DNA of 64,000 nucleotides from a virus (lineage: Duplodnaviria > Caudoviricetes), in the IMG/VR virus record IMGVR_UViG_3300046615_000115, positions 1-64,000 of that record; one strand, given 5' to 3'. Numbering within the stretch: position 1 is the first letter of the stretch; each line of letters starts with the position of its first letter. Positions 9,569-61,187 of the stretch are shown in pieces. Under the pieces are notes generated by a model. That model had not been told where the DNA came from and did no database searches. It was given only the letters and a program-made list of their open reading frames with translations. The translations under genes and the position numbers were made by a program.

Positions 9569-9849
9569 TTCAGCCTACTCCTAATCTTTTCAGCATCAAC
9601 ATGAAACCCGAGGTCAACATAATCTGCAAACGAATAACGGCTATCGGCCGTTTCACACAGAGGATACTCCTGTCCCGGATGTTCTGCAAGCCATTCTTCA
9701 TAATGAACATCCCACGTTTTAGGGTTCAAAACCTCTAGTGTGATGGTTTGGGGACCACCGTAGGAGTCGCCTTCTATTTCTAATGATGCTCGGTACTCCT
9801 CAAACAATTCGGACAATTTAGTGAGAAATTCTTTTGTGGCACTATTCAT
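9565..9849 (-). CDS. Hypothetical protein (94 aa)
   Basis: GAGGTG RBS; coupled to HNH gene. Confidence 0.7.
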   Translation of the reverse strand: MNSATKEFLTKLSELFEEYRASLEIEGDSYGGPQTITLEVLNPKTWDVHYEEWLAEHPGQEYPLCETADSRYSFADYVDLGFHVDAEKIRSRLK

Positions 9850-10447
9850 AGTTCACCTCTGGTGCATAACGTTTTAGGATAGCTTCTGCAACCCGCTGAT
9901 CGGTTTGGGTTGCAGCTAACTCAACCGCCATCTTAGCTTTATACTCTTTGTAGGCTTTGTGTGCAACATCTGGGTCATCAAATAGGCCAAGATATTTAAT
10001 ACCGCCACCGGGAATTTGACCAGTAGCTGTAAATCCCTTAGCAGCTTTATGCCATGATACGCCGATAGGCCATTTGCCACGGGCCAACGTATGTTCCGTA
10101 AAGAAGTTATTAACGGCTTGACTTACGAAAACACACTTTTCAGGGCAATATTCTTTATTACCTTGTACTAAAATGTCCTTGTCTAAATGTTTGTCTTGCC
10201 AATCCTGCGTTTCCATCCATGCCTTAAAGTTACTGAAGGTTAGCCATTCCTCACAGACGAAGCAGTCTGCATAAGTGGGCTGTCTCTTTTTGTATGCTGA
10301 TGAGTAACATCTAGCCAGCATAGTATTCCATTTTCTAAAGAATGGACAAAAGGGCAACGGCCCTTCGTGATTTTTAGGCCTAGGTCGCGTTACGTAATCG
10401 GCATCATTAATACCTACACCCTGAATTAACTTCTTACCTCTTTGCAT
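9842..10447 (-). CDS. Free-standing HNH homing endonuclease with AP2-like C-terminus
   Basis: W..ML.RCY, LDKDILVQGNKEYCPEKCVFV, PIGVSWHK. Confidence 0.8.
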   Translation of the reverse strand: MQRGKKLIQGVGINDADYVTRPRPKNHEGPLPFCPFFRKWNTMLARCYSSAYKKRQPTYADCFVCEEWLTFSNFKAWMETQDWQDKHLDKDILVQGNKEYCPEKCVFVSQAVNNFFTEHTLARGKWPIGVSWHKAAKGFTATGQIPGGGIKYLGLFDDPDVAHKAYKEYKAKMAVELAATQTDQRVAEAILKRYAPEVNYE

Positions 10448-11995: not shown

Positions 11996-12240
11996 TCCAC
12001 AGGTGGCTTAGGCAAATACTGCCAATGTGTGATCTGACTCTTAGGAATCTCTGAATACTTACTCCAATCAGACCACTGTTCCATACAATACCAACCAGAT
12101 TGAAATTCACAAGTGCATACATGAATACCGTCTGTCGCGATTACGTCAATAGAGTCAAATACTTTAGAGCCGTCTACGTTTAGTTCTGGTAGGCGGTGAA
12201 CTACGCTGATCCAATTGCCGCTCATATTATTAACCCCCAA
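11992..12240 (-). CDS. DUF551-family protein
   Basis: WISVVHRLPE ... ITHWQYLPKPP. Confidence 0.75.
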   Translation of the reverse strand: MGVNNMSGNWISVVHRLPELNVDGSKVFDSIDVIATDGIHVCTCEFQSGWYCMEQWSDWSKYSEIPKSQITHWQYLPKPPVE

Positions 12241-12478
12241 TCAATCGAGCGTCTTCGATAGGAAGAGAATCAATTCCCAATGTCTCACTACGTCCCCAAC
12301 AAGTTGTGCCGTCTGTAAAGCCTGCTGCAATAGGGTCACGAGTGATACGCACCCAACTACCATGAGATTGATTCTTCATGCGACCTACGCTGTTAGCAAA
12401 TACGTCATGATTCACAGATTTGGGGAAAATGAAAATTTCTTCAATGTCATTTTCGTCTAGGGTTACGATGTATTTCAT
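12230..12478 (-). CDS. Conserved-type phage hypothetical protein
   Basis: AAGF...CWGRSETL motif; coupled ORF. Confidence 0.7.
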   Translation of the reverse strand: MKYIVTLDENDIEEIFIFPKSVNHDVFANSVGRMKNQSHGSWVRITRDPIAAGFTDGTTCWGRSETLGIDSLPIEDARLIGG

Positions 12479-13800
12479 TTATAATCTACCTTACAAAAGT
12501 TAATTGCACCAAACTGTTTAAGCCAAGCCTTGTACATAAATCCCCGCACTTGCTCGGCAATTGTTTTCTTTACCATAAGGCCATCATGCCACGGCAACAG
12601 CACCTCGTCAATAGCCAATGTGTCACAAATCACGTTATCCAAAATTTCACTGTCCAAATACTGCAAATCAACGCCGACATCCTTGAAAAACTTATCGGCA
12701 ATCAATGAGTTATGAGCTTGCACAGACTCCAATACATCTTGAAAATCAACTTCATACATACCGAAGTATTTTGCTTTATGTTCTGAAGTTTGTCCCCATT
12801 TGCTGCGATCACGTCCGAAATGCTGCGATAACGCTTGTTTAGCTTGCTTCAAGTCTTTGGAATTTAGACCAATCATTACAGCCATTTTCACCAGATTACG
12901 ACTTGGATCATACTTGACAATCCCATGCTTCAGTTTGAACTGTTCAACAGCTTCAGCGTCCACATACTTATCCCACAGGTCAACACCATAAGGATCAAAA
13001 TCTGACGGTAATTGAGCATCAATCATCTGATAGCAGATATTTGGGTGGATTGCAGAAAAGTCGAGCTCCACTAAATCCTCTCCATCAATCTGTAGGAACG
13101 GACGAAGTGTCTTATCCATCGTCTGAATGCTGCCTACAGAGTTATACCAGCGACCTCCGGTTGTTAGATTTTCAATGAAAATACGTTTATAGCTTTGGTC
13201 AGGCAGTGTAACACCTTTCAGTGAGATACGTGCCTCAATCAAAGCTGTGTTGAATTGGCTGACTTTATCTTTAATTGCACTCACGCCTTTAACCCCTTGA
13301 GTTTGCATAGGTTTCTTTGTCTTACGTTCTTTGATTTCAACAGGAGATTTAAGATCTACACTCACATTGTACAAACCTACATTCTCAAACAAACCTGTAA
13401 ATTTATCTGTGACTTCTGTGATAGACATTTCAAACTCCTCTGCTTTCTTATCAAAACCATACACCTTAACACCACCAATGTAAAGATGAATAAATCCACC
13501 AGCCTCCAGCTTATCTAGTAGTGTGATCATCCTTGCATATGATATCTGTTGTGTGTTACCTGTGTATAGCTGTTTATTCCTTGGGATCTTTAGACAAATA
13601 GCTCTTGTTTTGATCATCCTAGCTATGTTAGTGATAAGAGCACGTATCTCTTTCTCTTCTTCTCTTCCATACTCAGATGTAAACATACTAACAATTGATT
13701 CATATTGCTTAGCTTTATTGTAATGGATATTGAAATGAGTAGATCTTAATTCCTTCCATAGAAGGTCTTCATCATTCATATCTTTAATCTGTATCTTCAT
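12475..13800 (-). CDS. PolA/T7-RNAP-superfamily polymerase-like protein (TV-Pol-like)
   Basis: GGRWY; motif A ELD247FSAIHP; motif B R301xxxK305; LQxxDS; motif C WH405D406G; AAGGAGG RBS. Confidence 0.7.
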   Translation of the reverse strand: MKIQIKDMNDEDLLWKELRSTHFNIHYNKAKQYESIVSMFTSEYGREEEKEIRALITNIARMIKTRAICLKIPRNKQLYTGNTQQISYARMITLLDKLEAGGFIHLYIGGVKVYGFDKKAEEFEMSITEVTDKFTGLFENVGLYNVSVDLKSPVEIKERKTKKPMQTQGVKGVSAIKDKVSQFNTALIEARISLKGVTLPDQSYKRIFIENLTTGGRWYNSVGSIQTMDKTLRPFLQIDGEDLVELDFSAIHPNICYQMIDAQLPSDFDPYGVDLWDKYVDAEAVEQFKLKHGIVKYDPSRNLVKMAVMIGLNSKDLKQAKQALSQHFGRDRSKWGQTSEHKAKYFGMYEVDFQDVLESVQAHNSLIADKFFKDVGVDLQYLDSEILDNVICDTLAIDEVLLPWHDGLMVKKTIAEQVRGFMYKAWLKQFGAINFCKVDYK

Positions 13801-14021
13801 ACTTAAGACCTCCTTAGAAGTGTATTAATAGTTAAGAGAATGAGTGTAACAGAAGGCTAATAGATATAATACTGTAAATAGAGCTAGAAGCCCGTAATAC
13901 GTGGTCTGTAGCCAATTTATCCCCCTAAAAGGTTGTAAATATCAACACAAATTCAAGTACATATAATCTCACACTCCACCCCCTCAAACACAAGGTTGTT
14001 TCCACTGTTTATTGGGTATTT

Positions 14022-15560: not shown

Positions 15561-15587
15561 AACAACCTCCTCAATTAATGTAGGCCA

Positions 15588-15616
15588 ATCTTAAACCACC
15601 AGTTCAGTCGTGTCAA
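15588..15616 (-). promoter_or_regulatory. Leftward sigma70 promoter
   Basis: TTGACA-17-TAAGAT. Confidence 0.8.
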
Positions 15617-15708
15617 GCATAAAATTGAATAAATTCACTGGGAGGTTCCTCTAAAGAGGCGTCCTAAAGGGGTTCCATAAAGAGAGGATGGATTTCTTTG
15701 AAATACCC

Positions 15709-15736
15709 TTGACAGGGGTGGGGAACGTGTTAAAGT
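15709..15736 (+). promoter_or_regulatory. Rightward sigma70 promoter
   Basis: TTGACA-16-TAAAGT with TGn extension. Confidence 0.65.
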
Positions 15737-15773
15737 AGGTGTCATTGAAAGCAAACTTAACGAGGGAAGAGGC

Positions 15774-15929
15774 ATGAACGAGAAAGAAATTATTGATGCT
15801 CAGCAAAAATACATTGAACAGCTAGAGGCAGCACTTATCAAATTGACCGATGAGTGTCTAGCTAGTGACTTCAATGAACACTGGGATAGCTATCTGGATG
15901 CGTTGAAGCTGCTTGCAGATAATGCTTGA
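15774..15929 (+). CDS. Hypothetical protein (51 aa)
   Basis: Manual translation MNEKEIIDAQ...; GAGG RBS. Confidence 0.65.
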   Translation: MNEKEIIDAQQKYIEQLEAALIKLTDECLASDFNEHWDSYLDALKLLADNA

Positions 15930-16020
15930 CATCGCTGACATTTCGAAGAAACAATACACGTGTATACGTAATGCAAGATTAATTTAAATATAAATTGGGT
16001 AGGGATTGGGAGAGAAAGGT

Positions 16021-18112: not shown

Positions 18113-19954
18113 TTGAATGGAGAGGATGATTTGAGTAATATCAGAAAAGTAATCTCTCACTATACAGATTTCTCTGGAGAGAAGCTTTGTTGCCCTATTC
18201 ACGGAGAGAACACACCATCCCTTCAGGTCTATGAGGATACAAACTCATGGTATTGCTGGGGTGCTTGTGGTGAAGGTGGTGACGAGATTGCATTTGTTAA
18301 AAGTATTGATGGTGTGGACTTTCCTGAAGCTGTAAAGAAGGTCTGTGAAATCCTGAATATTACCAAAGAGGAGCTTATGGAAAGTAAAGATAAAGAAAAG
18401 GTAGTTACTAAAGTTTCAGCAGAAAACGCTGAAGCTATGGACATTGGAGAAGTAAAGGAACTTATTCGTTCTACTGGCTATGTGAGTAATGGTTATCGTG
18501 GGATTCGTGATGAGGTGAATAAGTTCTTTGGTCACTTGTCTAAACTAGATGATCAAGGTAATGTCATTGCTCGCTATTATCCTGAAACAAACAACTTTGG
18601 TAAATTGACAGGCTACAAATGCCGTAACCATCCAAAGGACTTTAGTCACGGTAAAGTGGGAGCTACAGGTAATAAGAGTCAATTGAGCGGGCAGGTTAAA
18701 TTTAAATCTCCATCTAAATACGTACTCTATGTGGGCGGAGAAGAGGATAAGGCTGCTGCATACCAGATGCTTAAGGAGAATCGAAAGGATCAAGAGTTTG
18801 ATTCTATTCCTGTTGTTAGTCCTACATCTGGTGAAGGTTCAGCAGCAAAGCAAGCTGCAATGCAATATGACTGGTTTGACCAATACGACATCATTGTAAT
18901 TGGGATGGATCAAGATGAGGCAGGGATTAAGGCAGCTAAAGAGATTGCTGCTGTACTTCCAAAAGAAAAGCTTCGTATTGCTACATGGTCGGGCAAAGAT
19001 CCTAACCAGATGTTGATTGACGGTAAAGAGAAACAATTTGTACGTGATTTCTACAATGCCAAGGAGTTTATCAACAGCGGTATTTCATCTTCTGGTGATG
19101 CTGAAGCTGGTCTTGCTGAGTTTTTGACAGCACCTAAGATTGGTCTTCCTCCTCAGTTGAGTAAGCTTCAAACTGCAATGCGTGGTGGTATTAAATCAAC
19201 TGGTTCTGTAGTCAATATTATTGGTGACACGAGTATTGGTAAGAGCTTTCTATCTGATACTCTCATTTACCATTGGTTGTTTAATAGTCCTCGTGTTCCA
19301 ACTATTGTAAGTCTTGAGCGTACTAAAGAAGAGTTGACAATTGATTTATTGTCAATGCATCTTAAGAAAAATCTGATGTGGTTTACAGATGGTCATGATG
19401 CTGTTGACTATTTGAATCAACCAGAGGTACAGATTCTTAAGAATGAGCTTCTTTACAATGAAGCTGGCGAGCCTCGATTCTTCATCATTGATGAGCGAGA
19501 AGGTGATATTGAACTTCTTAAACGTCAGATGGAGAAAAGTGGTAAAGTAAACGATTCTCGATTGATGGTGATTGATCCACTGACAGACTTCTTGCGATCC
19601 TTGGGGACAGAGGTTCAAGAGAACTTTATGATGTGGCAGAAGCTACAAAAGAAGAATGGCTTTGTATTCATTAATATTCTTCACACACGTAAACCACCAA
19701 CTGATAAAGACGGTAATGTTCGTAAAGTGACTGAGTATGACGCTCTTGGTTCTGGTACATTTATTCAGTCGGCAGACGTGAACATTGTGATCAATCGTGA
19801 TAAGATGGCTAGTGATCCGATTGAGAAGAATACGACCTATGTTGATATGCCTAAGTGTCGTGGGGGTATCACTGGTGAGATTTGTGCGCTATACTATGAC
19901 GCTGAAACTCGTCAGCAGTATGATCGTGATGAGTATTTTAATAATCCAGTATAA
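18113..19954 (+). CDS. DNA primase-helicase (CHC2 Zn finger + TOPRIM + SF4 helicase)
   Basis: CPIHGENTPS...WYCWGAC; GGEEDK and MDQDEAG TOPRIM; GDTSIGKS Walker A; K.RGG arginine-finger region. Confidence 0.9.
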   Translation: MNGEDDLSNIRKVISHYTDFSGEKLCCPIHGENTPSLQVYEDTNSWYCWGACGEGGDEIAFVKSIDGVDFPEAVKKVCEILNITKEELMESKDKEKVVTKVSAENAEAMDIGEVKELIRSTGYVSNGYRGIRDEVNKFFGHLSKLDDQGNVIARYYPETNNFGKLTGYKCRNHPKDFSHGKVGATGNKSQLSGQVKFKSPSKYVLYVGGEEDKAAAYQMLKENRKDQEFDSIPVVSPTSGEGSAAKQAAMQYDWFDQYDIIVIGMDQDEAGIKAAKEIAAVLPKEKLRIATWSGKDPNQMLIDGKEKQFVRDFYNAKEFINSGISSSGDAEAGLAEFLTAPKIGLPPQLSKLQTAMRGGIKSTGSVVNIIGDTSIGKSFLSDTLIYHWLFNSPRVPTIVSLERTKEELTIDLLSMHLKKNLMWFTDGHDAVDYLNQPEVQILKNELLYNEAGEPRFFIIDEREGDIELLKRQMEKSGKVNDSRLMVIDPLTDFLRSLGTEVQENFMMWQKLQKKNGFVFINILHTRKPPTDKDGNVRKVTEYDALGSGTFIQSADVNIVINRDKMASDPIEKNTTYVDMPKCRGGITGEICALYYDAETRQQYDRDEYFNNPV

Positions 19955-20003
19955 GAACCACCGCAACATCATGCGGATGAGATTGATTTTTAAGGAGAAG
20001 GTT

Positions 20004-22199
20004 TTGGATAAGAAGTGGTTTGAATCGGATTTTATCTACGATTTAGAGTCGTACCCCAATGTTTTCTCTATGAGTATCATCCATGCTTCCGGGAAACACA
20101 TGCGAGTCTTTGAGATTAGTGATCGTAAGAATGAGATTGAAGGGATTGCTAAATGCTTGCGATATCTGGTTCGGAATAAATGTCGTATGGTGGGGTTTAA
20201 CAACAACTCATACGACTACACTCTTATCCATGAAATCATCAAGTCTCTCAAGGAAGCAAAACAAAGCGGTAAGACTCCAAACATTACAGCTCAGAAACTC
20301 TATAAACTGACAACACAAATCATTACAAAGATGCAGTCTGAAGAAAAGTGGTACGGTATTAAAGAAGCTGACCATTTTATTCAGCAGGTTGATTTATACA
20401 AGATCCATCACATGGACAATATGGCAAAAGCCACATCTTTGAAAATGTTGGAAGTGAATATGCGGTCTACTAACGTGGAAGACCTTCCCTTCCCTGTCGG
20501 TAAGAAGTTAACAAGCGATGAAATTGATATTTTGTTGCACTATAACAAACACGATGTTAACGAAACTCTGAAGTTCTATTATTATTCCTATGAGGCGATT
20601 CAGCTTCGTAAGGAATTGTCTGAGAAGTTTGGTTTCGACTGCACAAGCTTTAGTGATAGTAAGATTGGTGAAACTCTATTCATTAATCGTCTTGAGCAAG
20701 CTCAGAAGGGTTTGTGTTATGAATACAGTAAACATGGTGGTCGTAAGATCAATCAGACCAAGCGTGATAATGTAAAGATTAAAGATTGTCTTTTTGACTA
20801 TCTGAAATTTGAACGACCTGAGTTTAAAGCTGTGCATGATTGGTTAAGTAATCAAACAGTGCAAGAAACCAAAGGTGTATTCAATGACTATGAAGAACAT
20901 CAGATTGGAGAGCTTGCTAAATACGCTCAGATGAAAACCAAGAAGGTGTTGTTTAAGAATCGGTTGAATCTGGACAACAAAGATAAACCTAAAGCTGACT
21001 TTGACTTTACTGATTTAGATCATCTGGAAGAACTTCAACGTTTGAAAGATGAATTCTTGAAAGAACATCCTATGGGATATTTTGAAGAGAAGGAAACTAA
21101 AACTTCACGCTCTCACAAGCTTAAGGTTACAGCATTCTATCGAGTGGTTGAGGCAATTAACACAGTTATTGATGACAAAGTGTATGTGTACGGTACTGGT
21201 GGTATCCACATGTCTATTGAAAGTGAGACTGTGAGAGCGGATGATGAATGGACAATTATCGATGCAGACGTAACTTCGATGTATCCGTCGATTTCCATTG
21301 CAAATAACGTGTACCCTGAACATCTTGGTATTACGTTCTGTAAAGTGTACAAGGATCTGTTTATGGAACGTGGTAAATATCCAAAAGGTAGCGGTCCAAA
21401 TGGTGCAATTAAGCTTGCTTTGAACTCCGTGTATGGTAAGTCCAACAGCGAATTTAGTCCGCTTTATGATCCGAAATATACCTTAACTATTACCATTAAT
21501 GGACAGCTTTGTCTGTCTATGCTAGCTGAACAATTGATTGGTCTTGGTTGTAAGATGATTCAGTGTAATACAGATGGTGTGACAGCTTTGGTTCCACGAA
21601 GTAAGGAAGCTGATTATTATGCAATCACAAAAGCTTGGGAAAAAACTGTTGGACTTCAGTTGGAATATGCTGTATATTCAATGATGGCTCTAAATAATGT
21701 TAACAATTATATTGCCGTTTATGAAGATGGAAAGGTCAAGAGTAAGGGTCAGTACGAAGTCGCCCACTTTGAGAAACTTGGATGGTCTAAAAATCATTCT
21801 GCGATGATCGTTCCAAAGGCTGCATTGGATTATATTGTCTACGGTAAGGACATTGAAGAGACAATTCGTTCACACAAGGATGAATTTGATTTTCTTTTGC
21901 GCGCCAAGGTGCCTCGGAGTTCAAAGCTGTACCTGTGTTATGAGGATGGTCGTGAGGTTCAACAGCAGAATATCTGCCGATACTATCCGTCTGAGCATGG
22001 TGGTAAACTGGTTAAACTGATGCCACCTTTGGTGTGGGTAGAAGGTGGTGGAGACTGGCGTAGACTTGGCTTGGATACTGAATGGACAGTAGAAACCTGT
22101 AATAACATTGCAGAATTTGACTGGAATAAATTAAACTATGATTATTACATCAAGGAGGCTCAGAAGCTGATTGATGGTGTAGGAGTGGAAATTGAATAA
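20004..22199 (+). CDS. Family B DNA polymerase with 3'-5' exonuclease
   Basis: YDLESY ExoI, GFNNxxYD ExoII, YNKHDV ExoIII, DVTSMYPS, KLALNSVYGK, NTDG; TTG start after AAGGAG. Confidence 0.9.
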   Translation: MDKKWFESDFIYDLESYPNVFSMSIIHASGKHMRVFEISDRKNEIEGIAKCLRYLVRNKCRMVGFNNNSYDYTLIHEIIKSLKEAKQSGKTPNITAQKLYKLTTQIITKMQSEEKWYGIKEADHFIQQVDLYKIHHMDNMAKATSLKMLEVNMRSTNVEDLPFPVGKKLTSDEIDILLHYNKHDVNETLKFYYYSYEAIQLRKELSEKFGFDCTSFSDSKIGETLFINRLEQAQKGLCYEYSKHGGRKINQTKRDNVKIKDCLFDYLKFERPEFKAVHDWLSNQTVQETKGVFNDYEEHQIGELAKYAQMKTKKVLFKNRLNLDNKDKPKADFDFTDLDHLEELQRLKDEFLKEHPMGYFEEKETKTSRSHKLKVTAFYRVVEAINTVIDDKVYVYGTGGIHMSIESETVRADDEWTIIDADVTSMYPSISIANNVYPEHLGITFCKVYKDLFMERGKYPKGSGPNGAIKLALNSVYGKSNSEFSPLYDPKYTLTITINGQLCLSMLAEQLIGLGCKMIQCNTDGVTALVPRSKEADYYAITKAWEKTVGLQLEYAVYSMMALNNVNNYIAVYEDGKVKSKGQYEVAHFEKLGWSKNHSAMIVPKAALDYIVYGKDIEETIRSHKDEFDFLLRAKVPRSSKLYLCYEDGREVQQQNICRYYPSEHGGKLVKLMPPLVWVEGGGDWRRLGLDTEWTVETCNNIAEFDWNKLNYDYYIKEAQKLIDGVGVEIE

Positions 22200-22728
22200 A
22201 GAAAGTGAGAGGTCGTTGTATGAAGAATGTCATAAAAGATTTTTATATGTTGACGGGGATCTAATTTGTAAGTACAATATTCACCATACTCAGATGGAAG
22301 CCGAAAAAGCTGGCACGCTGTGCTCAAACGGATACATAAAAATCTGTGTTGACTATAAGCAATATTGGCTACATCGTATTATATTTCTAATGCACTATGG
22401 ATATTTACCAAATAAGATTGACCACAAGGATAGGGATAGATTAAATAATCGAATTGAAAATCTTCGAGATGCTACAGACTCGGTGAATAGTATTAACAAA
22501 GGAGTTCAGTCCAATAATACATCAGGTCAACCCGGTGTGAGTTTCAGCAAAGCTGTAGGTAAATGGCATGTTTATATTAAAATCAACAACAAGAGGACAA
22601 ATCTTGGATACTTTGAGGATTTAGAAGAAGCGATCAGGGTGAGAAAACAAGCTGAAATTGATTTTGGGTTCACTGAAATTCGTAGCGATTGGGAATTTTC
22701 AGAAAAAGAAATTAAAGAAACCCCTTGA
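22192..22728 (+). CDS. HNH_3 + AP2 homing endonuclease
   Basis: LHRII...IDHKDRDRLNNRIENLR; NNTSGQPGV. Confidence 0.85.
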   Translation: MNKESERSLYEECHKRFLYVDGDLICKYNIHHTQMEAEKAGTLCSNGYIKICVDYKQYWLHRIIFLMHYGYLPNKIDHKDRDRLNNRIENLRDATDSVNSINKGVQSNNTSGQPGVSFSKAVGKWHVYIKINNKRTNLGYFEDLEEAIRVRKQAEIDFGFTEIRSDWEFSEKEIKETP

Positions 22729-57908: not shown

Positions 57909-58952
57909 TTAGGTCGAAGAAATCAGCTTAACCAGTACTTGTGGCTGAGTGACGAAGTACAGAGGAGAAGTCTCAACTTGCATTTCGTGGAACTCATCTT
58001 TAGGATCGGTGAACTCGTATGCGAACATCTCAACACCAACACCGTTAGCACCACCAAGCTTGTTGCTTGGGCCGTAGTAACCACGAAACAGATCATTTAC
58101 AACTGGCAGAACGTGACCAGTGTCAGTAGCAACAGCTACTTCGGTGGTATCATTTGGCAGTTTGAAGATATGATCGTAGGTGATGAAAGTTACACCTTTA
58201 TAGGTGAACTGATCAACCGAACCCCAAGCCATGAATTGGTTGGTGCTGTTACGGTTGATTTCAACTTGGGAAGCGTAGTACAGATAAGCTTGACGAATCT
58301 GTGGGTGACTAACCAGTTTGTCGAAGAACGAGCCGTCAACAACAACACGAATACCGCCACCGATGGTGGAACCAGTTTTCAAGTTGGTTTGCAGGTAACG
58401 CTTCAGTTGCGAGATTTTAGCGTTAACGTCGGTGGACGCATCACCAAGATCAAAGTCAATCACTTGTTGAGTGATACCGAACTGAGTGAACATGTCTGCA
58501 ATTACAGCACCGTCAGGGGTCTTCATGATACCCTTGGCAGCTTGCAACTTCATGTACTCAAGTGATTGCTCAACTTGTGCACGCATGTCGGTCAGTTTTT
58601 GTACACGAACACGGGCCAGTTGCTCAGGAGAGTCTGGGGTGCCCGGCATACGCCAGCCTTGAATATCTTCAGGAGTGATATAATCACTGTGTTTGAAGTA
58701 AGCCAAAGGCAGCGAGAAGGTTTCTACTTTCCGATCATTACCTTTAGTAGTATCGCGACTACGGCGGGAAACTTGTGGGAGCAGGGTGGTGTCATTCATG
58801 CTCTTATCGAACACGATTGCAGTTTGAGTAGTACCTTGGGTGCGGAACAGATCCATACCACCGATCAAACCAGCTTGGTTATCAAGGTTGTTAATTTCGG
58901 CGGTCCAATCAACTAGTTGGAAGCCATTACCAAACGAACGAGTAGTTGCCAT
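57909..58952 (-). CDS. Major capsid protein (lambda E-like)
   Basis: 347 aa; LEYMKLQAAKG; ETSPLYFVTQP. Confidence 0.9.
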   Translation of the reverse strand: MATTRSFGNGFQLVDWTAEINNLDNQAGLIGGMDLFRTQGTTQTAIVFDKSMNDTTLLPQVSRRSRDTTKGNDRKVETFSLPLAYFKHSDYITPEDIQGWRMPGTPDSPEQLARVRVQKLTDMRAQVEQSLEYMKLQAAKGIMKTPDGAVIADMFTQFGITQQVIDFDLGDASTDVNAKISQLKRYLQTNLKTGSTIGGGIRVVVDGSFFDKLVSHPQIRQAYLYYASQVEINRNSTNQFMAWGSVDQFTYKGVTFITYDHIFKLPNDTTEVAVATDTGHVLPVVNDLFRGYYGPSNKLGGANGVGVEMFAYEFTDPKDEFHEMQVETSPLYFVTQPQVLVKLISST

Positions 58953-58961
58953 TGTCTATTT

Positions 58962-59744
58962 TTATCCTATATTCATAATCTGTGGGAATTCTTTGCTCAG
59001 CCACAGTAAAAGTTCTGTTTCTAATTTGGGTTCTATAGTTTCTGTAAAACCATCTGGCAAGACATCTTTTGATATAACACCAGTCTTAAACTTCTTCTTG
59101 ATTTCATTTTCAATGTGGTAAATTAAACTACCATCTTGATCGTGTACTTCTAAAAGACAGTTTAAATCAGCAATTGTCTTTCTTTGCAGTTGCCTATGCC
59201 GTGACTTAACTTCACAGTTTGTTATACCGAACTTCAATCCCACAACTTCACCGAACATCTCAATTCTATGTATATAGAGAGCTGCGGGCTTATTTGTGTT
59301 GAAGCCTGTCTCTGAACATTTTCTACAACCTTGATTGCTGTAAATTACATTAGAGGCTTGTGTCTTAAAACTGCCATGTTCAAGACAAAGAAATTCCCAA
59401 GCAGAGCTTGTTAACCCGTCATAAGTGTTGAGAACTTTAAATCTTGTTTTGCTCTCAACTATATGAATCAAATCTTCAACGGGTATTTTCTTTTCTTTTT
59501 GAATCTTGATAAGATTACTTTCTCTCAAGCAGCCACAGGCAGTTACTGACGAGTTCAAATTGTTCGAGGGTAGTAGGACGACGTTTCCGCAATCACATCT
59601 ACAAGCGTACTGATTTTTCTTCCTTGAGTTTCTACCTGCATAGAAAAGAACCTCTATCATTCCATATCGATTACCAACTTTTGGAACATACAGATGGTGT
59701 ATTGGTTCTTCCTGCCTAAGAGAAAATATATCTTCTACAGTCAC
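58962..59744 (-). CDS. GIY-YIG-like homing endonuclease with Zn-ribbon modules
   Basis: CRCDCG..ACGC; CLEHG..GCRKC; ALYIHR..LKFGITN. Confidence 0.7.
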   Translation of the reverse strand: MTVEDIFSLRQEEPIHHLYVPKVGNRYGMIEVLFYAGRNSRKKNQYACRCDCGNVVLLPSNNLNSSVTACGCLRESNLIKIQKEKKIPVEDLIHIVESKTRFKVLNTYDGLTSSAWEFLCLEHGSFKTQASNVIYSNQGCRKCSETGFNTNKPAALYIHRIEMFGEVVGLKFGITNCEVKSRHRQLQRKTIADLNCLLEVHDQDGSLIYHIENEIKKKFKTGVISKDVLPDGFTETIEPKLETELLLWLSKEFPQIMNIG

Positions 59745-59762
59745 ATGAACCTCAGATCAGTC

Positions 59763-60191
59763 TCAGCTAAACTGATTTGGTTGATCCAAGACCTGAATTC
59801 CTACAGCTTCCATTTGTGCGTACACAGCAGCCAGTTCAGGAGCAGTGTCAACAGAAGCACCGAAAACAAGGTAGGATTTGCCTACGCCAGCAGGACCACG
59901 GAACAGAACAGTTACCGAAGTGTCAGTGGTAGCAGCGATGGTTTGCTTGTTATCACCATCTGGTTTGCCGATATAAATACCAGCGAAGTTTTGGCTACCA
60001 TCTACAGCAGTAGCTTCCAAGATTTTGTACTTACCGGTGGCAGTAACTTTACCCAGCACAGTACCAATGGTGTAGGTTTTAATTGCAGCTTCGTTAGCTA
60101 CAACTACATCACGGCAGTGGCCGTATTCAGGGTGATCTTCATATTGCAGTACAGCGCCAAGGCGAGTAGAGCGAGTGTCGATTGCAGCCAT
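59763..60191 (-). CDS. Head decoration protein (lambda D-like)
   Basis: GTVLGKVTATGKY; DGSQNFAGI. Confidence 0.8.
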   Translation of the reverse strand: MAAIDTRSTRLGAVLQYEDHPEYGHCRDVVVANEAAIKTYTIGTVLGKVTATGKYKILEATAVDGSQNFAGIYIGKPDGDNKQTIAATTDTSVTVLFRGPAGVGKSYLVFGASVDTAPELAAVYAQMEAVGIQVLDQPNQFS

Positions 60192-60233
60192 ATTATTTGA
60201 AACTCCTAGCTAGGATTTTATTGATAAACAATA

Positions 60234-61187
60234 TTATTGTTTTTTACTTTTGTTAATAAGTTCACCAACAAGATTCAGACCAGCTTCTTCTTGTTTCTTC
60301 GGTTCACCTTCACCGCTAACGCCTTTCTCTTTGAAAAGGTCAGAGTCTTTTTCTTCTTTGGCTTTACCGCCAAGAGATTTGAATACAGCTTCGAATGCTT
60401 CATCTGGCAAAGCTTCAGTTGCTTTGTACAGGGATTCAGCTTCTTCCTTGCTAACTACAGCTTCCAGTTTCTCTTTACGAGCTTTAGCAACAACTTCCAG
60501 TTTCTCAGCTTTGAATGCAGCAACTTCTTCAAGAGCTTTGGTCAGAGCAGCTTCTTTTTCTACCAATTGAGCTTTGAGAATTGCTTCAGCAGCATCAACT
60601 GCTTTCTTGATTTCTTGTTCCAAAATTTCTACCTCAGACTTTTTAAGTTCTTGTGCTTTGAACATCTCAACTAGATGCTCTTTAGTACTATCATTTTGAA
60701 GGGCTTTAGTTACAAGGCTATAGATTCCTTCTTCAAGTTTGTCTTCCGCATCTTCAGACAGAAGCATTTCCCCAGTTTCAGGTTCATAAGAAATAACCCG
60801 AGACATAGGTTTGGCCAAGTCACCTAAAGTAACTTTTCCATCTACAAGAGAGTAATCTACCGAGAATAGACCGCCCTCACTACAGAAGAGAACAATGGAA
60901 TCATTATAGTCTTCTACATACAGCCAACGATCGTCATCACCGAAAGCTTCACGAACTGCACTACTAAGTGCATCATTAATCTTGGATGCGTACATTGATT
61001 TGTTAACAATAGCTTTATCAAGCCCAAGAGCCTTCAAAGACTTTTCAACATCTTCTGTGATAGCCGCATCAGACTTCATGAGAAGTGATACATTACGTCC
61101 ATTTGCCGAACCACCCTGAAGCTCTTTATGGGTAAGTGCTAAGTGGGGGCGTTTGCTATCATCTTTCGTTTTAATAATCAGAGGCAT
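60234..61187 (-). CDS. Scaffolding protein
   Basis: Glu/Lys/Ala-rich coiled-coil C-terminal half; between protease and decoration genes. Confidence 0.7.
   Translation of the reverse strand: MPLIIKTKDDSKRPHLALTHKELQGGSANGRNVSLLMKSDAAITEDVEKSLKALGLDKAIVNKSMYASKINDALSSAVREAFGDDDRWLYVEDYNDSIVLFCSEGGLFSVDYSLVDGKVTLGDLAKPMSRVISYEPETGEMLLSEDAEDKLEEGIYSLVTKALQNDSTKEHLVEMFKAQELKKSEVEILEQEIKKAVDAAEAILKAQLVEKEAALTKALEEVAAFKAEKLEVVAKARKEKLEAVVSKEEAESLYKATEALPDEAFEAVFKSLGGKAKEEKDSDLFKEKGVSGEGEPKKQEEAGLNLVGELINKSKKQ

Follow-up and report, generated by a model that had tools for sequence, protein, structure and literature searches.

What use does a tailed phage with a replicase and a primase of its own have for a second, minimal polymerase? 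The question is raised by a gene at positions 12475-13800 of the Caudoviricetes record IMGVR_UViG_3300046615_000115 from IMG/VR, of which the first 64,000 nucleotides (nt) were analysed and are called the window here. An original prediction, made from the letters of the window, had placed the product of this gene in the PolA/T7 RNA polymerase superfamily and presented it as the best candidate for an undescribed system. The superfamily assignment stands, but the novelty does not: the family was published in 2024 as divPolA2 (Yutin, Tolstoy, Mutz, Wolf, Krupovic and Koonin, Virol J 21:200; PMC11348598), and the protein, referred to as P0001, is a member of it. This 441-amino-acid protein is probably catalytically active, judging from the conservation of its motifs. 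Its gene is preceded by a conserved leader element and lies in the neighbourhood of a divergent strand switch. It is tentatively proposed, with somewhat less than even confidence, that divPolA2 is a polymerase which acts at a specific site and provides the primers with which early phage replication begins.

The open reading frame (ORF) 12475-13800 was confirmed and lies on the minus strand, which had not been stated before. The motifs that had been quoted are present in P0001 in the order given, namely GGRWY (with R217), ELD247FSAIH252P, R301NLVK305, LQYLDS (with Q380, D383 and S384) and WH405D406G. The gene and its parts are located as follows.

12475-13800, minus strand: divPolA2-family gene coding for P0001 (ORF and translation; PHROG match)
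13809-13815, minus strand: strong Shine-Dalgarno sequence AAGGAGG, 8 nt before the ATG (read from the sequence)
13366-13713, minus strand: predicted N-terminal winged-helix-like domain, residues ~30-145 (model)
12478-13353, minus strand: predicted minimal family A polymerase core, residues ~150-441, with R-hairpin, palm and fingers; one helix takes the place of the thumb (model)
13150-13152, minus strand: codon of R217, the arginine of the GGRWY β-hairpin (invariant in 62 homologues)
13045-13062, minus strand: motif A, from the putatively catalytic D247 to H252 (D247 invariant; H252 conserved in at least 90%)
12862-12900, minus strand: motif B or O-helix with R301, K305, M309 and N313 (K305 invariant; R301 and N313 conserved in at least 90%)
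12580-12588, minus strand: motif C, H405-D406-G407, with the family consensus HDS (H405 and D406 invariant)

Over its full length, P0001 belongs to PHROG 4756 (phrog_4756, E-value 4e-84), to which no function is assigned there, and 2,596 cluster representatives match its family at E ≤1e-3 in a search of 1.8 billion proteins. Homologues were found in 240 phage records, from Rheinheimera Barba, Vibrio, Aeromonas, Pseudoalteromonas and Shewanella phages and from the Vibrio cholerae phage ICP1. With P0001 as the query, tblastn gave 115 matches in Rheinheimera Barba phages (E ~3e-11). A family profile of 62 homologues matches Barba19A with an E-value of 3.9e-64 and ORF100 of ICP1_2006_E with an E-value of 1e-104, and the BFVD model of a Barba31A protein matches the model of P0001 (E 4e-24). 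The family came to light in 110 barbaviruses, which have a PolB as well, and was subsequently recognised in further Caudoviricetes; a single genome can carry as many as three paralogues. It was described as having a palm that looks active, neither an exonuclease nor a recognisable thumb, variable neighbours, and an N-terminal globular domain of which the fold was not recognised and for which no similarity was detected; a repair DNA polymerase or an RNA polymerase were the options offered (PMC11348598). In the literature after that publication, no paper mentioning divPolA2 was found.

The same residues recur throughout the family. Positions R217, E245, D247, H252, R301, K305, Q380, S384, H405 and D406 are invariant in an alignment of 21 homologues. 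In a set of 62 diverse homologues, with 22-63% identity, R217, R233, D247, Y271, K305, H405 and D406 are invariant, and G216, Q226, H252, P270, R301, N313, D383 and S384 are conserved in at least 90% of the sequences. The motif conservation is not due to chance, and the two aspartates D247 and D406, whose conservation in homologues the original prediction had named as a check, do not vary.

Searches of domain and structure databases by sequence returned little. P0001 alone gave nothing meaningful against Pfam, NCBIfam or the PDB sequences, and the 62-sequence profile had no match among the PDB sequences. The Pfam family PF00476 is matched neither by P0001 nor by any of the 62 homologues at E ≤1, and the same holds for Pfam RNA_pol / PF00940. 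The ESM Atlas yielded only unnamed clusters as relatives of P0001. In hhalign the family profile reached a probability below 1% against the single sequences of T7 DNA polymerase and T7 RNA polymerase (0.2% for the latter), lone sequences being too weak as targets. One of the 62 members has a sub-threshold match (E 7.5e-5) to Pfam divDNAB, a divergent DnaB-like ATPase; a helicase fusion in this member, if real, would bear on the function of divPolA2. Ten longer homologues of 540-560 amino acids, which have a different N-terminus, showed no Pfam domains.

The AlphaFold2 model of P0001 has a predicted local distance difference test (pLDDT) score of 91.5 and a predicted template modelling (pTM) score of 0.85. 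In a Foldseek comparison with the PDB the list is filled by family A DNA polymerases (best E 1.5e-6), and DNA polymerases (apicoplast apPOL, Bst, Taq, Klenow and Pol theta) and single-subunit RNA polymerases (yeast mitochondrial and T7) score equally, in line with a second, minimal member of the PolA/T7 RNA polymerase superfamily. The model comprises a separate N-terminal domain of ~150 amino acids (residues 1-150) and a palm/fingers core. The exonuclease domain is absent, as had been stated from the sequence, and the secondary structure shows a single helix (residues 173-189) before the R-hairpin, where PolA carries its thumb. The N-terminal domain matches winged-helix proteins only, which supports the winged helix that had been put forward as a possibility.

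The equivalences within the active site were read from the order and spacing of the motifs, not from a residue-level superposition. R217 and Q380 would be the counterparts of R668 and Q849, which act as minor-groove sensors in Klenow. D247 and D406 would serve as the pair of metal ligands, and R301 and K305 would stand for the O-helix residues that bind the triphosphate. By motif order, R217 would also be the arginine of the PolA TGR motif and the “absolutely conserved arginine” of TV-Pol (PMC2579912). None of the catalytic and triphosphate-binding residues varies even at the very large divergence of 22-30% identity, which argues for retained catalysis. The motif alignment places H252 at the position of the steric-gate glutamate of PolA and of a glycine in T7 RNA polymerase, and N313 at the position of the O-helix tyrosine of both enzymes. 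Instead of HDE, motif C reads HDG in P0001; the family consensus HDS is that of T7 RNA polymerase. The bulky histidine at the steric gate hints at the use of deoxynucleoside triphosphates (dNTPs) rather than ribonucleoside triphosphates (NTPs). With an asparagine in place of the O-helix tyrosine and a histidine at the steric gate, the enzyme is a natural experiment in how members of the PolA/T7 RNA polymerase superfamily select sugar and template, even if the idea of an origin role is wrong.

The complete virus record is 88,819 bp long with 127-bp direct terminal repeats, and the phage encodes its own PolB and primase, as had been claimed. These genes and the nearest strand switch are located as follows.

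18113-19954, plus strand: primase-helicase of the DnaG/DnaB type (PHROG 239, E 1e-136; Pfam Zn_ribbon_DnaG, Toprim_2 and DnaB_C)
19797-22199, plus strand: replicative family B DNA polymerase (PHROG 1252, E 7e-177; archaeal PolB chains)
15561-16005, strand not applicable: divergent strand switch (ORF orientation and GC skew)

Beyond the window, the minus strand carries a second divPolA2 paralogue at 75,256-76,506. Its 416-amino-acid product is 24% identical to P0001 and keeps the GGR, D..H, R..K..N, LQxxDS and HDS motifs. The cumulative GC skew of the genome is lowest at 15,600 and dips again at ~76-78 kb, and these are the two divergent strand switches of the genome. The second paralogue is the first gene to the left of the second switch (~77 kb), and the gene in the window starts ~1.8 kb to the left of the first one, behind four small minus-strand ORFs. 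In relatives, no other gene usually stands between divPolA2 and a divergent switch; this is so in the related loci L007, L008, L009 and L010, according to the deposited gene calls, and in phage M1 (Pseudomonas phage vB_PsaM_M1). In 27 of 40 IMG/VR loci the skew minimum is found at most 500 nt upstream of the gene, a number that rises to 32 for a limit of 900 nt, and in Barba19A, ICP1 and PhAER-4 the gene is 0.4-1.9 kb from a divergent switch.

The presence of the gene does not follow the type of replicase. The phage in the window has PolB, L010, with an 81% identical divPolA2, carries a PolA replicase and no PolB in its place, and ICP1 encodes a T7-like PolA (PMC7145576), so that the divPolA2 gene is independent of the replicase type. 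The PolA of L010 against the PolB of the window illustrates the swapping of polymerases that Yutin et al. described (PMC11348598). L010 is the 76-kb contig JBOFUQ010000029.1 of GCA_051652665.1, binned as Bacteroidales; its DNA is clearly that of a phage, and the binning is probably wrong.

No conserved partner gene was found beside divPolA2, and the downstream ORFs are unrelated even among loci with 71-81% identical polymerases. In the window, an 82-amino-acid minus-strand ORF (12230-12478) shares 4 nt (ATGA) with the polymerase gene at the stop of the latter and therefore looks translationally coupled to it. This ORF is not conserved beside divPolA2 homologues, close ones included.

What does travel with the gene is a leader element. 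It lies in the non-coding stretch of 221 nt between the divPolA2 gene and the next upstream minus-strand ORF.

13801-14021, minus strand: upstream non-coding leader, 221 nt, with conserved blocks (alignment with three relatives)
13917-13935, minus strand: upstream box CAACCTTTTAGGGGGATAA (conserved in the closest relatives, L010, L011 and L007)
13876-13914, minus strand: imperfect hairpin or dyad GCTA-C-AGACC ... GGGCT-TC-TAGC (nhmmer and covariance model matches)
13859-13868, minus strand: downstream box TATATCTATT, TATCT-type, or ACTATCT-type in relatives (conserved columns in the leader alignments A4 and A6)

Alignment of the leader with those of three relatives, whose proteins are 71-81% identical, gave a conserved block of ~80 nt, the remainder being unalignable. 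The general form of the hairpin is GCT-nn-AGCC(C), a loop of 7-10 nt and (G)GGCT-nn-AGC, and together with a TATCT-type box it is also found upstream of homologues with only 35-40% identical proteins. Hairpin and box precede the phage's own divPolA2 gene in more than 25 loci, and the gene-adjacent copies of the hairpin carry a CACTATCT-type box. A sequence-only model of the element (R1), searched over 244 kb of loci outside its building set, gave seven matches, all seven located 30-120 nt upstream of a divPolA2 gene. The box CAACCTTTTAGGGGGATAA has a single occurrence in the window with up to 3 mismatches allowed; its one match in IMG/VR, which no homologue adjoins, is consistent with chance.

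The element is rare within a genome. Five whole genomes contain one to three hairpin matches each, and the present 88.8-kb genome has two to three, upstream of both paralogues (the copy in the leader of the second one at 76,549-76,587) and a weaker third near the right end. The third match, at 88,547-88,577, is not a true copy, as it is a stable plus-strand stem with a T-run behind it, placed where a rightward operon ends, and resembles a terminator. A match at a convergent junction in another genome (G002) is probably terminator-like too. A strong copy (E 2e-6) in a related 90-kb phage (G001; 23619-23656, minus strand) lies in a divergent intergenic region and heads a leftward operon of which the first gene is a 99-amino-acid ORF and not divPolA2, so that the link between hairpin and divPolA2 is strong but not absolute. 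In relatives, the element is nearly confined to the upstream regions of divPolA2 genes. Two ORFs of 424 and 435 amino acids beside stray hairpin copies proved unrelated to the divPolA2 family.

In many loci the sequence of the stem varies while the pairing is kept (AGCCC/GGGCT, AGCCTT/AAGGCT and CCTAGT/ACTAGG). The folding of individual hairpin sequences is modest (mean z -1.4) and the difference between sense and antisense is not significant, and hence an RNA hairpin, a single-stranded DNA hairpin and a double-stranded DNA dyad look alike in these data. With RNAalifold the leader had a weak consensus or none, since its stems are misregistered by MAFFT, and no Rfam family was matched over 11.5-17 kb, the leader included. 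Inspection by eye shows sigma-70-like promoters in many loci, at a distance of 70-110 nt before the hairpin, which would place the hairpin inside a long 5' leader. A promoter scan of 13801-14021 gave no sigma-70 promoter above the threshold, and no multi-copy promoter was found in the genome.

These features are brought together in the proposed initiator. The divPolA2 protein would be made early from its own long conserved leader, its N-terminal winged-helix-like domain would recognise a specific site, and the enzyme would start or extend a short nucleic-acid chain there. The chain would then be taken over by the PolB replisome of the phage, making divPolA2 a dedicated initiator or maker of primers for early, origin-dependent replication, similar in its working to TV-Pol/CCPol and to the prim-pol initiators of mobile elements. 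The independence of the replicase type supports such a role, and the predicted fold with its invariant active-site residues and winged-helix-like head, the strand-switch position in relatives and at both paralogues as well as the conserved leader element that travels with the gene are counted in its favour. Support comes also from ICP1. The divPolA2 gene ORF100 of ICP1_2006_E lies at 58,951-60,618, and Barth et al. (PMC7145576) reported for ICP1 a coverage peak of bidirectional theta replication at 8 min “near the 60 kb position”, with which the position of ORF100 coincides. Further support is provided by precedents. TV-Pols were predicted to be primase-polymerases (PMC2579912), and the statement of the original prediction that their activity is untested is out of date: for one member, CCPol, acting with its partner MP, work of 2020 demonstrated DNA polymerase activity and priming with dNTPs (PMC7581432). 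In PLE-like satellites the initiator slot is occupied by a RepA_N protein or by a “DNA Pol I domain” protein (LeGault et al., PMC9410903).

A more specific version of the proposal is that, in large lytic phages, divPolA2 and its hairpin/dyad leader together make up an origin module complete in itself, in which the minimal PolA, guided by its winged helix, would make the first primer at or near the gene itself and two paralogues would give two start sites. This is possible, and is held with less confidence than the initiator as such. If true, it would represent a third kind of replication-initiating primase in tailed phages, besides DnaG and AEP. An initiator function of divPolA2 would answer how these lytic phages that encode PolB or PolA choose and fire their origins, and would show that a PolA core with neither thumb nor exonuclease can be a site-specific starter enzyme.

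Several points weigh against an initiator. Strand switches and GC skew follow the direction of transcription and are thus not independent evidence of an origin, and the gene in the window is ~1.8 kb off the switch, not at it. The positional data come mostly from one clade of 80-92 kb phages, in which the synteny may be inherited rather than selected, and the ICP1 peak is only coarsely placed (“near 60 kb”) and comes from one phage. A DnaG-type primase is already encoded by the phage, and no SSB-like partner (single-stranded DNA-binding protein) such as MP adjoins divPolA2 in the downstream ORFs compared across loci. With an asparagine for the O-helix tyrosine, and HDG or HDS instead of HDE in motif C, the chemistry may differ from that of known PolAs, and the catalytic role of the whole family is read from sequence and model. 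Finally, the leader element could be a plain regulatory hairpin of the mRNA, one strong copy of it being found without divPolA2.

It is rather unlikely that divPolA2 is instead a minimal single-subunit RNA polymerase serving a few specific units, perhaps starting at a hairpin like the virion RNA polymerase of phage N4. The HDS of motif C and the R-x3-K-x3-M spacing resemble T7 RNA polymerase on motif reading, and the one to three hairpin copies per genome are found at the heads of operons, a number comparable to that of the early promoters of N4. The CACTATCT-type box of the gene-adjacent copies points in the same direction. The active site argues otherwise, since the NTP-selecting O-helix tyrosine of T7 RNA polymerase is an asparagine in P0001 and a bulky histidine is found where T7 RNA polymerase has glycine and PolA has its steric-gate glutamate. 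Moreover, the 441-amino-acid protein contains neither a T7-like N-terminal domain nor a specificity loop, and Pfam RNA_pol matches 0 of 62 members. The element is unique or nearly so and stands upstream of the enzyme's own gene, and many loci show, on inspection by eye, sigma-70-like promoters ahead of the hairpin. An enzyme transcribing from many promoters is disfavoured, because the sole conserved upstream element has only two to three copies per genome.

An accessory DNA polymerase or nucleotidyltransferase with no tie to an origin, acting in gap filling, repair or lesion bypass or as an early anti-defence enzyme, is likewise regarded as unlikely. The gene is placed amid small early ORFs with no assigned function, and small early ORFs of phages are often counter-defence genes. 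Its neighbours are not conserved, which would suit such an enzyme. A repair DNA polymerase is one of the options of Yutin et al., who reported up to three paralogues per genome (PMC11348598), two being present here. For a general repair enzyme, however, a winged-helix head that looks sequence-specific and a gene-linked cis element are unexpected, and the conserved position at strand switches is left unexplained. No defence or anti-defence family was matched, a weak point as Padloc was not searched. Among the three options of the original prediction, origin priming, transcription and anti-defence, the context favours origin priming somewhat.

That divPolA2 is mainly a DNA- or RNA-binding autorepressor acting through the leader hairpin, with a vestigial or secondary polymerase core, is very improbable: the analogy to T4 gp43 binding the operator in its own mRNA, the winged-helix-like N-terminus and the fact that, in more than 25 loci, hairpin and box follow the likely promoter of the enzyme's own gene and precede its ribosome-binding site speak for it, but the invariance of catalytic and triphosphate residues at 22-30% identity argues for retained catalysis, and autoregulation would not exclude an enzymatic role.

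Some other features of the genome were noted. Among solved structures, the polymerase encoded at 19797-22199 matches archaeal family B polymerases only (E 3e-6 to 1e-3). The first 158 nt of its longest ORF (19797-19954) also form the end of the primase-helicase ORF, and the true start of the polymerase is probably further downstream. HNH homing-endonuclease genes are found at 9842-10447 (minus strand, PHROG 953) and, directly after the PolB gene, at 22192-22728 (plus strand, PHROG 99). The non-coding right end of the genome (88447-88819), beside the 127-bp terminal repeat, contains six AAGTGC-type repeats, 12-25 nt apart, around a stable hairpin with a T-run; this region may serve as a terminator or have a role in packaging or replication.

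Compared with known systems, P0001 is about half the size of the T7-like RNA polymerases (T7, mitochondrial, N4 vRNAP and RNAPII) and has neither their promoter-recognition N-terminal domain nor their specificity loop. The O-helix tyrosine of these enzymes is absent from P0001, and this genome has no multi-copy promoter. From the family A DNA polymerases (Klenow, Taq, Bst, apPOL and Pol theta) it differs in having no PF00476 match, no exonuclease and no thumb, and in carrying Asn, His and HDG (HDS in the family) where these have the O-helix Tyr, the steric-gate Glu and HDE.

A kinship with TV-Pol is plausible but weak. The family profile matches a 506-amino-acid ORF of Microcystis phage Ma-LMM01, which we take to be the published TV-Pol, with an E-value of 1.5e-4, and hhalign gave a weak match as well (probability 40%, E 3e-4, 84 columns). 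The alignment spans the R-hairpin, motif A with a shared D-x4-H, and motif B. P0001 shares with TV-Pol (Iyer, Abhiman and Aravind 2008, PMC2579912) the minimal family A core with the hairpin arginine (R217), the catalytic aspartates (D247 and D406) and RxxxK (R301 and K305), the absence of a nuclease domain, the occurrence in viruses that keep their own replicase, and, for some TV-Pol members, an extra N-terminal domain. The N-terminal domain of TV-Pol is described as all-helical, while that of P0001 is predicted to be α/β and winged-helix-like; the TV-Pol thumb is made of two antiparallel helices, as against one (173-189) in the secondary structure of the P0001 model. Typical neighbours of TV-Pol are D5-type helicase, integrase, resolvase and transposase genes, none of which is found here in the window or in the relatives. 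Similarly, CCPol-MP of SCCmec (Bebel et al. 2020, PMC7581432) has a small OB-fold, SSB-like partner, MP, encoded downstream, and no such gene stands beside divPolA2.

The closest system is divPolA2 itself, a very large family that is present in well-studied phages such as ICP1, and nothing essential differs in P0001 from its description (PMC11348598). Shared are the N-terminal globular domain, the active-looking palm and fingers, the lack of an exonuclease and of a canonical thumb, the coexistence with a regular replicase (here the PolB at 19797-22199), paralogues in some genomes and variable neighbours. An origin role is not discussed in that paper. New for this genome are the second paralogue, the location of both copies at or near two divergent switches and the leader element before both of them. 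To the knowledge of the divPolA2 family as such are added the strand-switch position, the leader hairpin or dyad in the clade of 80-92 kb phages and, from the predicted structure, the probable winged-helix nature of the N-terminal domain.

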